Source of the DNA: Nitrospirota bacterium
GTDB lineage: Bacteria > Nitrospirota > Thermodesulfovibrionia > Thermodesulfovibrionales > Dissulfurispiraceae
Assembly (NCBI GenBank): GCA_040758355.1
Contig: JBFLWF010000009.1
Span: 30,203 to 94,202, forward strand
Direction: 5' to 3'
DNA: 64,000 nucleotides
A program made the translations under genes and the position numbers. Of the stretch, positions 26,223 through 49,464 are shown one piece after another (position 1 is the stretch's first letter; every line of letters starts with the position of its first letter). The notes under the pieces were generated by a model that was given only the letters and a program-made list of their open reading frames with translations, did no database searches and was not told the origin of the DNA.

Positions 26223-26507
26223 TTAGCAGCCTTCTGCCTTTCTAAAATCCGTGGCTACATTCTTTCCGCCTTTGCTTTCGTATTTGCCTTTGACCTTATC
26301 GCCAACGCTGTATTTGCTAAGCTTTCCTTTGTCTTCCAGTGTTAGTGTTACGTCTTTGCCATCGCTGTCTGTGACAACGACCGTACCGGCGCCGGAGTCT
26401 ATGTTCTTGATCGTGCCTTTGATTTTTTCTGCTGCAATTGCAAGCCCTATAAGCATTGCAATGCACAGGATCGTCCCTAAAAGAACCGTTACTGTTTTTG
26501 ATCTCAT
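26223..26507 (-). CDS. Small exported beta/OB-fold-like protein with C-terminal Gly-Cys
   Basis: Signal peptide, IKGTIKNID..TVVV..VGDKV pattern, ends ...KAEGC-TAA. Confidence 0.75.
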   Translation of the reverse strand: MRSKTVTVLLGTILCIAMLIGLAIAAEKIKGTIKNIDSGAGTVVVTDSDGKDVTLTLEDKGKLSKYSVGDKVKGKYESKGGKNVATDFRKAEGC

Positions 26508-28365: not shown

Positions 28366-28408
28366 TCCTAAAAATAAGGCTGAGGGGGCCTCAGCCTTAT
28401 TTTTAGGA
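28366..28408. terminator. Rho-independent terminator
   Basis: TCCTAAAAATAAGGCTGAGG...CCTCAGCCTTATTTTTAGGA. Confidence 0.85.
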
Positions 28409-28419
28409 TATCAGATGAT

Positions 28420-29769
28420 TTATTCCTTGAATATTCCGTATGTCCCGTTGCTCTCAACCTTGATGACAGCATTGAGAAAGAGCGCCTTATATCCTGCATC
28501 CTTCAGGGTATGGTATACCATTTCTGCCCGCGCCCCGGTTGTACAGTGGATAATTATTTCTCTATCCTTCGGGATCTCGGAGAGGCGCGATGCTGCGTCT
28601 TTTGCAGGTATATTTTTAGCGCCTTTTATTATTCCCCTCATTGTTTCGTCCTTATCTCTGACATCGAGGATCAATTTATCAGGTGGTAATGTCTCTGCAA
28701 TTTTCTTGAAATCATCAACAGAGATCTCCCCCGGCTTCGGTTTGGGCACATATACAATCGCTGTCTTAAGCTCATTGCTCGCAACAGGGTTTCCTGCCTT
28801 CTTCCATGCCTCGATGCCGCCTGCAAGGTATGCGAGGTTGCTGTAGCCCCACTTCCTTACTATTTTAAACGCATCTTCAGAAAGTTTCTGCGTGTCGCAG
28901 CAAATAATAATAGGAGCTTTTTTGTCAGCAGGGAACCCATCCTTTGCCTGTGCAAGCTCGCTTAAAAAAATTGATACGGCACCTTTAATATGCTCCTTCT
29001 TTGCCGCGTCTGCTGGCCTTATATCAATGAGCACATGAGGGATGTTCTTATCCATGGAATCCTTGAGATTTATAACAGAGGAAGCTACAAGATTGCCCTT
29101 CTTCTTCCACTCCGGCATACCGTCGATGAATACCTTCACATTTGTGTAGCCTGACTTTTCTGCCTTACTGGCAGAGGATGGGCTGAGTCTTCATGTAGGG
29201 CCGGCGCAGTAGAAAATGAGCAGTTTATCTTTTTCCTTTGGAAGTTTATCTATATTCTTTTCAAATTCAGCGTCATAGATCGATATTGCTCCGGGTATGT
29301 GGCCTTCATGGAATTTCGGTGCAGGCCTTGAATCAATGAGTACAAAGTCGCCTTGAGTTTCTATGAGCCTTGAGAGTTCATCAATCTTAATCTTTTTTTC
29401 ATCAGGTAGCGTTGCAGGCTGTTTAACTGCAACGTACGCGGCATACAGGATCCCGTCCCGCTCAGTGAGGGTAATGGCAATCTCCTTTTCCTTAGGGATT
29501 TTTTCAAGTTCGCTTATTCCTTTTACCTTTGTATTGTCATCGTATTTTACAATCCATGAGGCAGGGCCGATCTGGATCTGTATCGTCTCTGCACGATCAG
29601 ACACACCGACCATAGTACCCATTAATGTTTTTTCGTCCGGTGCGTGGCATTGCTTGCATGGCGGCGCTATCTTCGGTTTTTGTGCCTGCGCCATACTTGC
29701 GGAATATGTCAGGAGCAGGCTGGCTGTTGCAAGGACGACGATTGCAATTAATAATAACTTTTTTCTCAT
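28420..29769 (-). CDS. Exported heme c / triple-rhodanese selenoprotein, paralog A (449 aa; Sec at TGA 29191-29193)
   Basis: ORFs 29191-29769 and 28420-29139 are in frame; IFYCAGPT-U-RLSPSSASKAEKSGYTNVKVF completes one rhodanese domain; CKQCH; SECIS-like hairpin. Confidence 0.9.
29159..29175 (-). promoter_or_regulatory. SECIS-like hairpin (paralog A)
   Basis: TCTGCC-AGTAA-GGCAGA at +16..+32 after TGA. Confidence 0.75.
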
Positions 29770-29890
29770 ATATCCCCCAGATTTTTTTGTTTGCCTGCAA
29801 AGGCAGACAGGTGATCCTATATTTTAAATTTGCAAGGGAAATATATCATAAAACTTCAGAATTGTAAATTATAATACGTAGAATTGGGGT

Positions 29891-29923
29891 AAAACAGGCG
29901 GCCAGCCAAAGCTGGCCGCCTGT
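29891..29923 (-). terminator. Rho-independent terminator between the two paralogs
   Basis: ACAGGCGGCCAGC-TTTG-GCTGGCCGCCTGT then T tract. Confidence 0.85.
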
Positions 29924-29929
29924 AGAGGA

Positions 29930-31291
29930 TTATTCCTTGCTTATCTCGTACTTGCCGTCTTTGTCGATTTTGATATTGGCATTGAGGAATCTTACTTTAT
30001 ATCCTGCTTCCTTTAGTGTGTGGAATGCCATTTCAGCCCTGACCCCTGTTGAGCAATGGGCGATTAGCTCTTTGTCCTTTGGCATTTCTGAAAACCTTGA
30101 CTTCATGTCCTGGGCGGGAATATTTTTTGCCCCTTTGAGCATCCCCTGCATTGCCTCATCTTCATCCCTTACATCGAGGATGAATTTATCTGCCGGCGAT
30201 GTCTCTGCGATCTTCTTAAAATCTTCAACGCCTATCTCACCGGGTCTTGGCTTCGGAACATATACAATAGCTGTTTTGAGGTCTCCGCTTGCAACAGGAT
30301 TCCCTGTCTTTTTCCATGCCTCGATGCCGCCGTCAAGCACAGAGGTGTTTGTATATCCCCAACTTCTTACAACCTTAAATGCATCGCCGGCAGTTTTTGC
30401 ATCATCTGCATAAAGGACTATCGGCGCTTTTTTGTCAGCAGGGAATCTGTCTTTTGCAGTGCTGATTTCCTTTGACGGAATAGATACAGCGCCTTTTATG
30501 TGGCCTTTTTGGGCATCATCCGGGGGCCTTAAATCAATAATAACCTGCGGCATGTCCTTATCTATGTTCTCCTTCACATATTGAGAAGTGGAGACTACAA
30601 GATTTCCTGCTTTTTTCCATGCAGGCATCCCATCGTGAAATATCTTTACATTTGTATATCCGAGTTTCTCCGCCTTACCGGCAGAGGAAGGAGAGAGCAT
30701 TCAGGTGACTCCGCCGCAGTAAAAGATGAGGAGATTGTCCTTCTCTTGTGGAAGCCTGTCGATGTTTTTATCGAAATCGGCATCATAGATAACTATAGAG
30801 CCAGGGATGTGACCTTCATGATACCTCGGAGCAGGACGGGAGTCTACAATGACATATCTGCCTTTTTCAGTCCCAATATCAATAAGCTTTGTCAGCTCTT
30901 CGGTCTTTATCTTCTTCTCTTCAGGGACTTTTGCCGGCTGCTTCACGGATATGCTCAGCGCATAAATGGAGCCGTCCTTTTCCTCATAGGCAACCGCAAT
31001 CTCTTTTTCCTTTGGAACCTTGTATATTGGCGGCTGCCAGCCTGTTAACTTTGTTTTGTCATCGAACTTCACGAGCCATACTGCCGGGCCGATCTGGATC
31101 TGCAGTGTTTCCGCCTTTCCTGACGCACTTGCCAGACTTCCCCTGAGGATTTTCTCATCAGGTGCGTGGCATTGCTTGCACGGCGGCGCTATCTTCGGTT
31201 TTTGTGCCTGCGCCATACTTGTGGAATATGTTAGGAATAGCCCTGCTGCCACAAGGACAGCGATTGCAATTAATAATAACTTCTTTCCCAT
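29930..31291 (-). CDS. Exported heme c / triple-rhodanese selenoprotein, paralog B (453 aa; Sec at TGA 30701-30703)
   Basis: IFYCGGVT-U-MLSPSSAGKAEKLGYTNVKIF in one frame; CKQCH; third domain HCSTGVRA; start ATG 31291 behind a G-rich RBS. Confidence 0.9.
30668..30686 (-). promoter_or_regulatory. SECIS-like hairpin (paralog B)
   Basis: CTCTGCC-GGTAA-GGCGGAG at +15..+33 after TGA. Confidence 0.75.
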
Positions 31292-31425
31292 ACATCCCCC
31301 TTTGTGTTTGATCTTCCACGCCAAAGGCATGGATTTAGGCAATCTATATTTACAATTATAAGTTTAGGAAAAGACGGTTAACATGTCAATAGATTTTTAA
31401 ACTTATAAACTTATAGACAGCTAAA

Positions 31426-40658: not shown

Positions 40659-40952
40659 TTATGTCATTGATTTCATTAATTCATCCCACTGTTCAGGGAA
40701 ATAGTCTTTAGCTTTCCATAATAGCCCTATTGGGTCTGTTAGCAAGACATCGAAGATAAATTTGTTTTCTTGACTTTCGCCGTTAAATGCGACAGCAACT
40801 GCACGTTCAAAGTCTCTCCACCCCGGCAAGGTCCGTCCTTGTTTCTGCGCAAGCATTCCTGATCCATCTTGATACGTGCTAAGAAGAAGCCGGAACTTTT
40901 CAACTGTCGTTGGTGGTCTATCAACAAGTGCCAACTGCATAATATTAGTCAC
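40659..40952 (-). pseudogene. Probable internally deleted restriction endonuclease
   Basis: 97 aa, coupled to the C-protein gene and divergent from an MTase; WRDFERAVA..K.IFDV fragment. Confidence 0.5.
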
Positions 40953-41205
40953 CTTTCTTTTTTTGCATAAGATCTATTTCATCCTTGAGGAGTTCATCTG
41001 TTGTCACCCCATAAATTCGTGAAACAGATAATACAAACTCAACCGTAGGTAATTTTTTCCCAGCTTCTAATTCACTCAAATAGCCATGCGCACTATAACC
41101 AAGGGACTCAGCAAACTGTTGCAACGTTAGATTTTCCCTCAGTCGCAAGACCCTGAGTTTCTCGCCAAAACGTTGTAAATCAGATTTAGCTTTTCCTCTT
41201 GACAT
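40945..41205 (-). CDS. XRE-family HTH regulator (R-M controller-like)
   Basis: FGEKLRVLR..LTLQQFA..YLSELEAGKK.PT. Confidence 0.85.
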   Translation of the reverse strand: MSRGKAKSDLQRFGEKLRVLRLRENLTLQQFAESLGYSAHGYLSELEAGKKLPTVEFVLSVSRIYGVTTDELLKDEIDLMQKKKGD

Positions 41206-41248
41206 TCTATTAATCCCAGCGGTATATTGTCTCCAATAGAGACAATAT
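41199..41248. promoter_or_regulatory. Divergent promoter region with palindromic operator
   Basis: TTGACA..TATATT toward the MTase; ATATTGTCTC-N5-GAGACAATAT (41224-41248). Confidence 0.6.
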
Positions 41249-42221
41249 GAATTTCGCTACGCAACATAAAGAAAATCTGATTTCTGGAAAAACTTCCAAC
41301 TTGGCCATGCTCAATAGTCCCATTAAATGGGTTGGCGGCAAGTCACGGTTACGAAAAAACATAATCGAGTTATTGCCTCCTCATACGTGCTATGTAGAAG
41401 TTTTTGGCGGTGCTGCTTGGGTTCTTTTTGGCAAACCGCCAAGTGATGTTGAAGTACTCAATGACATTGACCAAGAATTAATTAATTTCTTTCGTGTCGT
41501 GCGCGAACAACCGGAAGAGTTTATCACCTCCTTTGACCTTGAACTTGTTTCACGTGCAGAGTTCCAAAGATTATCATCTTTAGACCATAGTCAACTTACC
41601 AATATCCAAAGAGCCCACCGATTTTACTACCTCATAATGGCCGGGTGGGGCGGCGAGTTAAACTATCCGCGATTCCAGACTAGTATAACAGATGGAGGTC
41701 ATGGGAATAGACTTATTGGAGCATTGCAGACACTCCGAAAACGTATCGAGCCTATTCACAAACGACTCCAAACCGTTATCATTGAAAACCTATCATGGAG
41801 CGATTGTATAGATAGATATGATCGTCAAGGAACCATTATGTATATTGATCCTCCTTATCCAAATAATGGAGTAAACTATTATCACAATATGCGAAGCTGG
41901 AATCAACATGAGCATCTGGCAAGCCGCCTAAATCAGGCTTCATGTTTTTGGATTCTCTCGTCATATGATTCAAAAGAGGTGCATACGCTTTTTAAGGATC
42001 ATTTTTTTACCTATGTAACTTCTGCTTCGGGAATGAAGGCGAAAAAGAATGGTAAAGATCGTGTTCTAAATAAGGAAGTTCTTATAACTAATTTCCCGCC
42101 CTCAAAAGAGGCTTTTTCCCAAAAGCGCCGATGGGACGGAGACGGCTTCCTTTTAGTCCTTTATTCCGTCTCCGTCCCATCATATAATATACCAACCTGC
42201 CTTTTGCTGAAGATATGTTAA
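41247..42221 (+). CDS. Dam/D12-class N6-adenine DNA methyltransferase
   Basis: SPIKWVGGK, YVEVFGG, LNDID, YIDPPY, EVLITNF. Confidence 0.92.
   Translation: MNFATQHKENLISGKTSNLAMLNSPIKWVGGKSRLRKNIIELLPPHTCYVEVFGGAAWVLFGKPPSDVEVLNDIDQELINFFRVVREQPEEFITSFDLELVSRAEFQRLSSLDHSQLTNIQRAHRFYYLIMAGWGGELNYPRFQTSITDGGHGNRLIGALQTLRKRIEPIHKRLQTVIIENLSWSDCIDRYDRQGTIMYIDPPYPNNGVNYYHNMRSWNQHEHLASRLNQASCFWILSSYDSKEVHTLFKDHFFTYVTSASGMKAKKNGKDRVLNKEVLITNFPPSKEAFSQKRRWDGDGFLLVLYSVSVPSYNIPTCLLLKIC
42130..42181. repeat. Perfect 16-bp inverted repeat inside the MTase 3' end
   Basis: GATGGGACGGAGACGG-N20-CCGTCTCCGTCCCATC. Confidence 0.8.
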
Positions 42222-48069: not shown

Positions 48070-49464
48070 ATGAATAAACAAAAGCTCTTGGCATCATTGC
48101 CGTCTGTTGACGAAATCTTAAAGTCCGAAAAGGGATTGGAATGGCAGGAATCATTCCCGAGGCGGTATGTGCTTAAGGCGATCCGCGAAGTTATCGAAGA
48201 AAAAAGGCAGGCAATTCTCAAGGATGAATTAAAAGAAATTTCGCAGGAGGCAATGCTTCCCGAAATTCAGAGCAGAATAGAGAGGCTCTCTTCATTCAGC
48301 CTTAAGCCCGTGATTAATGCAACAGGAGTTGTAATTCATACTAATTTAGGCAGGTCTGTGCTTTCCGAAGATATACTGGAGAATGTAAAAAAAGTCGCCT
48401 GCGGATATTCCAATCTTGAGTATGATCTTGAAAAAGGCGAAAGGGGCAAAAGATATTCTCATATCCAGAGATTATTGAACGAGATTACAGGTGCTGAGAG
48501 CAGTCTGATAGTTAATAACAATGCCGCGGCAGTATTTGTATGCCTGACTGCCCTTGCAAAAGGGAAAGAGGTCATTGTCTCAAGGGGAGAGCTTGTAGAG
48601 ATCGGAGGCTCTTTCAGGATACCAGATGTGATGAGCAGCAGCGGAGCGATTTTAAGAGAGGTAGGAACAACCAATAAAACACATCTTCATGATTATGAGA
48701 AGGCGATAAATGAAAATACAGCACTATTGTTAAAAGTGCATCAATCCAACTTCAGAACAATTGGTTTTACAAAACAGGTCGAGATCGAAGATCTTGTAAC
48801 ACTTGGAAGAAAGCATAACATACCGGTCATGTTTGACCTTGGAAGCGGATGCCTTGTTGATTTGAAGCCTTACGGTGTTCACATCGAGCCGACTGTTCAG
48901 GACATTGTAAAGTCCGGATGCGACATTGTTACCTTCAGCGGCGATAAACTTCTTGGAGGTCCTCAGGGAGGGGTAATAGCAGGAAAGGCAGAACTCATTG
49001 AAAAGATTGCAAAAAATCCACTCATGAGGGCAGTGAGGATTGACAAGCTCACACTCTCGGCATTTGAGGCAGTGCTTATGAGTTATCTCGATGAGGAGAA
49101 GGCTAAAAAAGATATTCCGACATTAAGGATGCTTTTACAGGATATAAATGAAATAAAGGCGAGGGCGAAAAAGATAGCAGCTAAATTGCACAGGGAAATA
49201 AAAGAAGATATCGCAAATATAGAGGTGATGGCTGACTCATCTCAATCAGGCGGCGGAGCATTGCCTGAGATTGAGTTCAAGACCTATGTTATCGCAATCA
49301 AGCCGAAAAAATTATCCGTCAATAAACTCGAAGAACGGCTTAGACATGGCAACCCTCCGATAATAGCGAGAATAAAAGAAGACGCATTAATTATAGATGC
49401 GAGGACAGTGAGGGATAGGGAGACTGAGGTGCTGGTGAAGGGGATTTCAGGGGTATTGCTGTAA
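48070..49464 (+). CDS. selA: L-seryl-tRNA(Sec) selenium transferase
   Basis: VINATGVVIHTNLGR, VNNNAAAV, EIGGSFRIP, FSGDKLLGGPQ. Confidence 0.97.
   Translation: MNKQKLLASLPSVDEILKSEKGLEWQESFPRRYVLKAIREVIEEKRQAILKDELKEISQEAMLPEIQSRIERLSSFSLKPVINATGVVIHTNLGRSVLSEDILENVKKVACGYSNLEYDLEKGERGKRYSHIQRLLNEITGAESSLIVNNNAAAVFVCLTALAKGKEVIVSRGELVEIGGSFRIPDVMSSSGAILREVGTTNKTHLHDYEKAINENTALLLKVHQSNFRTIGFTKQVEIEDLVTLGRKHNIPVMFDLGSGCLVDLKPYGVHIEPTVQDIVKSGCDIVTFSGDKLLGGPQGGVIAGKAELIEKIAKNPLMRAVRIDKLTLSAFEAVLMSYLDEEKAKKDIPTLRMLLQDINEIKARAKKIAAKLHREIKEDIANIEVMADSSQSGGGALPEIEFKTYVIAIKPKKLSVNKLEERLRHGNPPIIARIKEDALIIDARTVRDRETEVLVKGISGVLL

Follow-up and report, generated by a model that had tools for sequence, protein, structure and literature searches.

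Sud of Wolinella succinogenes is a periplasmic carrier of polysulfide sulfur for Psr. Rhodanese domains related to this protein occur in the products of two tandem, paralogous genes, here called A and B, found in a 64,000-nucleotide stretch of a Nitrospirota genome (assembly GCA_040758355.1, contig JBFLWF010000009.1, positions 30,203 to 94,202; hereafter the window, with positions counted from its first letter). Each gene contains one in-frame TGA codon, interpreted here as selenocysteine (Sec, U), and the read-through products are predicted exported proteins with a c-type heme motif, a beta domain and three rhodanese domains. Sud (PDB 1qxn) resembles them in its rhodanese fold (Z 11.8) and in a sequence match to their third domain, and Cys forms of the family often lie by psr/phs genes; it differs in being a small single-domain homodimer of 137 amino acids (aa) without Sec, heme motif or beta domain.

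Five forms of rhodanese selenoprotein are distinguished in the consulted sections of a 2026 review, form 1 being characterized by the motif UxxS and TsoB by UxxxxU (PMC13188914; PMC9312934). Form 1 is listed there as a rhodanese-like domain-containing selenoprotein with PF00581 and the representative WP_010941598.1. The window proteins share with it the PF00581 domains, a single Sec and the UxxS motif (URLS in gene A, UMLS in gene B); they add an N-terminal CxxCH, whereas the form 1 tables, as far as consulted, say nothing of a heme, a beta domain or a function. Judged by motif and domain content against this table description, they quite probably belong to form 1. TsoB (NF045694; form 5, similar to a rhodanese/DsbD fusion) has the same five-residue loop spacing and aligns with their first rhodanese domain (aa 115-240), but the window protein scores 75 bits against a cut-off of 805, has one Sec instead of two, and carries three rhodanese domains with no DsbD-like fusion. 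Scores for form 3 (LYCAU, NF041203) were 91.6 and 77.9 bits against a cut-off of 115, the motif being C-x4-U and not CxU. For ExtH (NF040901), gene B reached 21.9 of the required 200 bits and gene A gave no match; no NCBIfam model scored above its cut-off for either protein.

The ExtH, ExtJ and MccSep (ExtKL) proteins of Geobacter are similar in combining an exported rhodanese, a small beta protein and periplasmic polysulfide chemistry based on heme and Sec. The window proteins differ in having one heme motif instead of five, and no ext operon is present at the locus. The nearest solved fold and loop for their first rhodanese domain are those of the CxGxxC-type BH2092 (PDB 3nhv/3o3w; CWGPAC vs CAGPTU), which is closest both by sequence and by fold (Z 16.8, root-mean-square deviation [rmsd] 2.7 Å over 113 residues). 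BH2092 is a single-domain structural-genomics protein with Cys, the aligned part of which has neither heme motif nor export signal.

A preliminary description of the locus had not recognised the architecture as one already characterised. Its novelty was overrated, since UxxS (form 1) and U-x4-U (TsoB) rhodanese selenoproteins are already catalogued in the sections consulted (PMC13188914). A CxxCH-bearing Sec rhodanese is not described in the consulted parts of PMC13510729, PMC5877670, PMC12142623, PMC13047784, PMC12998232, PMC13490349, PMC1794560 and PMC1914089, a partial search with earlier surveys and the review supplements outside it, and no experimental study of such rhodanese selenoproteins was found in the literature searched. 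The two genes are a real hidden selenoprotein pair, probably representing a heme-motif variant of a catalogued, uncharacterised, prediction-only class.

Read-through frames and selenocysteine codons

Translation table 11 divides the pair into four open reading frames (ORFs), at 29191-29769 and 28420-29139 for gene A and at 30701-31342 and 29930-30700 for gene B (all positions given for the pair are on the reverse strand). With TGA read as U, these fuse in frame into products of 449 aa (gene A, 28420-29769) and 453 aa (gene B, 29930-31291), which are 66% identical. The pairwise joining across one TGA at the same place in both paralogs, noticed in the preliminary description, was thus recovered. 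The codon contexts are FYCAGPT-U-RLSPSSA for Sec193 of gene A (29191-29193) and FYCGGVT-U-MLSPSSA for Sec197 of gene B (30701-30703). Pfam domain 1 (aa 130-224) straddles the TGA, in agreement with the earlier view that the codon splits a single rhodanese domain and that standard annotation would break the genes: gene callers report C-terminal pieces of ~256 aa starting with a Met just past the TGA. Contigs from other public studies carry the TGA unchanged in gene A (run X3) and in gene B (X2, X3, X5 and X6), so these codons are not assembly errors; the tandem order is confirmed by contigs from runs X2, X4 and X5, which span the intergenic gap.

The aligned codon was compared across 147 loci pooled from genomes and metagenomes after removal of duplicates, including both window genes and one 97%-identical strain. 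TGA is present in 106 of them and a Cys codon in 36 (TGC 29, TGT 7), as anticipated for a Sec position; five loci have other codons and none has TAA or TAG. At the protein level, the column is occupied by Cys in 89 of 90 full-length database homologs, although the DNA count is the stronger of the two because tools may display U as C. The tree of homologs requires at least seven switches between Sec and non-Sec states, and related copies are not independent in these counts.

The consensus for the bacterial selenocysteine insertion sequence (bSECIS) comprises a loop of 3-9 nt, a stem of at least 4 bp, a G in the first two loop positions, a distance of 16-37 nt from UGA and a minimum free energy (MFE) of -7.5 or lower (PMC13188914, section 5). 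Both window genes agree with it. RNA folding placed hairpins at +16 to +32 after the UGA of gene A (29159-29175; loop AGUAA; -9.6 kcal/mol) and at +15 to +33 in gene B (30668-30686; loop GGUAA; -12.8 kcal/mol), with loops starting at +22, G+23 and U+24, and stems of 6-7 bp. It also reproduced the earlier observation that pairing is kept by a change from U-A to U-G, which concerns the +18/+30 pair. Across homologs this pair covaries, both of its members being third codon positions (UA 44, CG 43, UG 17); G+23 is found in 96% of homolog hairpins, and +24 is always G or U. A SECIS-like hairpin lies 3′ of the codon in 101 of the 106 copies with TGA, compared with only 6 of 33 with Cys and none of seven rows with other or misaligned motifs that were kept separate. 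When the same peptides were synonymously recoded as a null, 35% and 18% of the sequences folded.

The host genome encodes SelA, SelB and SelD, all above cut-off, and contains a gene for tRNA-Sec (selC); selD itself carries one TGA. The selA gene lies within the window, as first described (48070-49464, forward strand; profile match). Among the genomes of the phylum that carry the family, 65 of 67 have selA, and the two exceptions are 86% and 74% complete. What the sequence itself shows is the read-through frame, a single column in which Sec and Cys are exchanged, the SECIS, the genes of the Sec machinery and the order of the domains. The codon column, the hairpin counts and the machinery strongly support the proposed Sec read-through, SECIS and C-x4-U loop, and the UGA of both genes is almost certainly read as selenocysteine. 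Neither of the sequence-based findings that the preliminary description had named as refuting, a column without Cys or TGA in homologs and a genome lacking selB/selC, was observed.

Rhodanese domains, beta domain and heme motif

Three rhodanese domains per protein were identified with Pfam. A confident AlphaFold2 model built from 105 sequences (mean predicted local distance difference test score 92.9, predicted template modelling score 0.82) has a helix at the N-terminus and a second, short one where the heme motif lies; these are followed by six strands (aa 48-115) and then by three domains of alpha/beta type. The preliminary description had listed a signal peptide, CKQCH, a beta-rich linker and three rhodanese domains; all are found in both proteins, the signal peptide as a prediction by eye and from the N-terminal helix of the model.

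Sec lies five residues past the catalytic Cys of domain 1, in a C-x4-U-x-x-S loop. This residue is Cys188 (29206-29208 in gene A), which stands at the canonical catalytic site and is retained by 89 of 90 homologs. Cys409 of domain 3 (28543-28545 in gene A; active-site motif CxTGxRA) is kept in 88 of 90. Domain 2 lacks a conserved catalytic Cys, with Tyr-Asp in most homologs, and therefore only domains 1 and 3 are likely to be active. For domain 3, persulfide reductases provide the best-matching rhodanese domains (3nt6, Z 15.5, rmsd 2.1 Å over 93 residues). Searches by sequence and by fold gave no solved homolog over the full length; their best hits are single domains, and they barely probe the N-terminal domain. 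Long fusions of the family (847-2415 aa) were also searched for and none was found, which is weak evidence. A subclade (L035, L067, L076 and L083) combines a shortened loop (CVGGC) with the heme motif, and its L076 copy is in tandem with a heme-less Sec paralog.

Small exported proteins with a Gly-Cys end are relatives of the six-stranded segment (29425-29628 in gene A), which a profile built from four of them matches in 13 family members (best E 9e-9). One of these small proteins, of 94 aa, is encoded in the window (26223-26507, reverse strand) and is a putative partner of the pair. It scores 25.1 bits against the ExtJ model NF040942 (cut-off 52.5) over model positions 2-77 of 77, and is ExtJ-like, not ExtJ. 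All 12 fetched small-protein loci, the window copy included, end in GC or GC-x. Two GC-tail proteins are encoded directly upstream of Cys-form genes (L141, 42-365; L145, 6521-6850), and a fused Gly-Cys tail occurs in 7 of 316 family-sized proteins vs 1 of 1266 background ORF segments. The small GC-tail proteins are possibly periplasmic sulfur carriers. Another copy in the host genome (G000:C27:15806-16114) follows an octaheme cytochrome. At L192 and L193 a TGA comes right after GC, and a terminal Sec is conceivable there.

The motif CKQCH is located at aa 38-42 of both proteins (29644-29658 in gene A, 31166-31180 in gene B), after a hydrophobic N-terminus and, in the model, on the short helix preceding the beta domain. 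Export of the CxxCH protein is predicted, and four cytochrome c assembly genes (PF01578) are above cut-off in the host genome, which, like selB, selC and selD, had been named as a check of the prediction. The earlier claim that the proteins are coupled to a heme stands only in part. Its first component, the motif, is secure in the close family, with C38, C41 and H42 present in every one of 105 close homologs. Among these homologs, however, no further His or Met reaches 90% conservation as a candidate distal ligand, and no recognisable cytochrome c domain was found around the motif, weak Pfam heme matches being limited to 3 of 105. Furthermore, the heme motif is missing from 15 loci whose N-terminal frame is long (9 Sec and 6 non-Sec; the frame is broken in one). 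Most of them form a separate, well-supported clade that retains C-x4-U/C and the same domains. The CxxCH is thus an optional add-on module, with heme-less relatives of both Sec and Cys type. A search with a heme-less profile found the motif in 22 of 108 representatives of 380-640 aa, a proportion biased by the query. Heme coupling of the Sec proteins is plausible.

A variant spacing, CX4CH, occurs in eight loci. It is found in genus g16 (L051, L052, L053 and L112) as CSLPGCH. The g16 gene is followed by that of a ~630-aa octaheme cytochrome without an NCBIfam match at E 1e-12. At L051-L053 a SLAC1/TDT transporter is also encoded downstream, and divergent small exported rhodaneses are present, while L112 represents a recent change from Sec to Cys.

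Candidate roles in sulfur metabolism

We lean slightly towards the view that these predicted-exported triple rhodaneses are periplasmic carriers or transferases of polysulfide (sulfane) sulfur that would feed terminal sulfur reductases. Gene neighbourhoods are consistent with such a role. Of 80 metagenome loci, 69 covered the Sec column, and psr/phsABC-like genes were found beside 9 of the 31 Cys-form loci with flanking sequence; two PsrA-like neighbours gave 521-539 bits to PhsA, below the cut-off of 694. Divergent paralogs occur with YeeE, TusA and other rhodaneses (L081, L090 and L145). The host genome contains dsrA, soxB, YeeE/TusA clusters and two TGA-containing genes for the polysulfide reductase MccSep/ExtKL. 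The latter are in tandem with one in-frame TGA each (G000:C4:99670-102782, L102), ~8 kb downstream of a YeeE-family gene. An exported triple rhodanese, likened here to the family by description, is also part of the Desulfurivibrio dismutans psr operon, which is up in sulfur disproportionation according to the consulted part of PMC12142623. Of the two transferase roles raised in the preliminary description, periplasmic sulfur transfer is supported by the psr/phs, YeeE and TusA neighbourhoods; selenium transfer finds little specific support, the neighbours favouring sulfur respiration and transport.

Further clusters were observed in the same context. In the host genome, soxB lies near an exported double rhodanese gene on G000:C11 (L107), and a second cluster on G000:C15 (L106) consists of two YeeE genes, TusA and a double rhodanese. 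L081, L082 and L090 form a divergent Sec paralog clade located behind a two-component system and beside YeeE/TusA or, for L082, ~7 kb from MccSep.

Several observations weigh against a role in feeding terminal reductases. Psr genes were found beside none of the 38 Sec-form metagenome loci (9 of which have little flank), psrABC was nearby at only one genome locus, L053, and a close PsrA was not found in the host genome (best 31% identity). In the host genome, as in most Nitrospirota, it is an isolated gene surrounded by housekeeping functions (moaC/tolB, ffh). Co-occurrence with MccSep is modest (48 of 65 carriers vs 43 of 81 non-carriers among genomes with selA, kin not being independent), all six g16 carriers are without a MccSep match, and the same-genus genomes of L201 and L202 keep MccSep and the small GC-tail protein without having either rhodanese gene. 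The idea that the family is obligately tied to MccSep or the small protein was rejected on this distribution.

In the mechanism that we propose for sulfur transfer, the domain 1 selenolate, located in the C-x4-U loop, would attack an S-S bond of polysulfide, and Cys188 would either resolve the adduct to a selenenylsulfide or receive the sulfur as a persulfide. Domain 2 would act as a scaffold, and Cys409 of domain 3 would hold the sulfane sulfur or pass it onward to a terminal reductase or transporter. A Psr/Phs-type enzyme could act as the acceptor at loci that encode one nearby, and in the Nitrospirota host this part could fall to MccSep or a YeeE/TusA route. The ExtJ-like beta domain and the Gly-Cys tails may serve docking and hand-over, and the single N-terminal heme, where present, may re-reduce or sense the C-U pair as an optional module.

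SoxY is a periplasmic sulfur carrier and offers an analogy for a more elaborate, speculative and rather unlikely version of this scheme. The protein would be a monoheme seleno-enzyme with a c-type heme on its ExtJ-like beta domain, and the rhodanese Cys-x4-Sec loop would either ligate this heme or be coupled to it electronically. It would cleave polysulfide and exchange sulfur with Gly-Cys-tailed ExtJ-like carriers, as a SoxY-like periplasmic relay for Psr and MccSep in sulfur-reducing or disproportionating bacteria.

Another possible, though fairly doubtful, explanation is that the heme form is a small periplasmic reductase. Its heme c would pass cytochrome electrons to a Cys188-Sec193 selenenylsulfide, which would cleave polysulfide or reduce selenite, with Cys or Sec possibly being the sixth heme ligand, as in the comparison with MccSep and its His/Cys heme and Sec. 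The invariant heme residues without a conserved distal His/Met, the redox-pair geometry of the conserved Cys188 and the octaheme cytochrome gene of g16 suit this idea, and MccSep is a precedent for heme plus Sec in the consulted part of PMC13510729. The heme-less clade, with its intact loop and domains, argues against it, as does electron stoichiometry: one heme provides one electron, and the step needs two. Linkage to psr operons, moreover, suggests that the reductase is a separate protein.

A function in selenium detoxification or delivery (selenite, perselenide), or in the scavenging of reactive sulfur, instead of respiration, appears quite unlikely. It would accord with the ExtJ-like beta domain, with a homolog near an ExtI porin (L086), the ext cluster being tied to selenite and tellurite handling in the consulted part of PMC5877670, with the patchy, accessory distribution, and with a few homologs located beside cysK/Rrf2 genes. 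Neighbours are, however, mostly of sulfur respiration and transport (psr/phs, YeeE, TusA), Cys forms are numerous, and neither selD nor selAB is linked to the family.

Finally, the idea that the TGA is a real stop, yielding separate N- and C-terminal proteins or pseudogenes, has a negligible probability: the recorded C-terminal fragments with Met right after the TGA and the ATG immediately past it in gene B would fit, but translation would then end inside the active-site loop of a single rhodanese fold, the TGA is exchanged only with Cys codons and never with TAA or TAG, the SECIS is confined to TGA copies, and gene A encodes Arg, not Met, at the next position.

Distribution and history of the pair

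The pair is flanked by a gene encoding a methyl-accepting chemotaxis protein (MCP) and by moaC. Each gene is followed by its own terminator-like hairpin (28366-28411 for gene A; 29894-29923, with a U-tract, for gene B), and the two are therefore likely separate transcription units. Nitrospirota copies sometimes adjoin a sigma-54 activator gene; a conserved Nitrospirota operon was rejected, the gene lying mostly among housekeeping genes. Two genomes of the same genus (L201 and L202 in G090 and G114; 99-100% complete) have none of the 3.2 kb that separate the MCP gene from moaC. Because the flanks are kept at this syntenic site and both genes are missing, the pair is considered accessory.

A recent simple tandem duplication was rejected, as DNA identity between the paralogs is 68% and they are not sisters in the FastTree tree. 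They have in common a 77-nt block with at most three mismatches (~29638-29715 and ~31160-31237), covering the end of the signal peptide and CKQCH. Silent codons agree at 21 of 26 positions in this block, which was chosen after the fact, vs 122 of 264 elsewhere, and this suggests gene conversion between the paralogs. Elsewhere in the window, positions 40659-42221 contain a short ORF, a helix-turn-helix regulator and, judged by translation, a DNA adenine methyltransferase-like ORF, suggestive of a restriction-modification remnant.

Because gene callers break the Sec forms in two, work on sulfur disproportionators by proteomics or genome comparison will probably overlook these proteins or lose their signal peptide. 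Of the 77 family matches listed, 66 contain exactly one TGA. A match was obtained in 67 of the 301 sampled genomes of the phylum, which makes the family a widespread and concrete candidate. Its natural Sec and Cys versions, with and without heme, can be compared directly, and those with Cys need no Sec machinery for expression.

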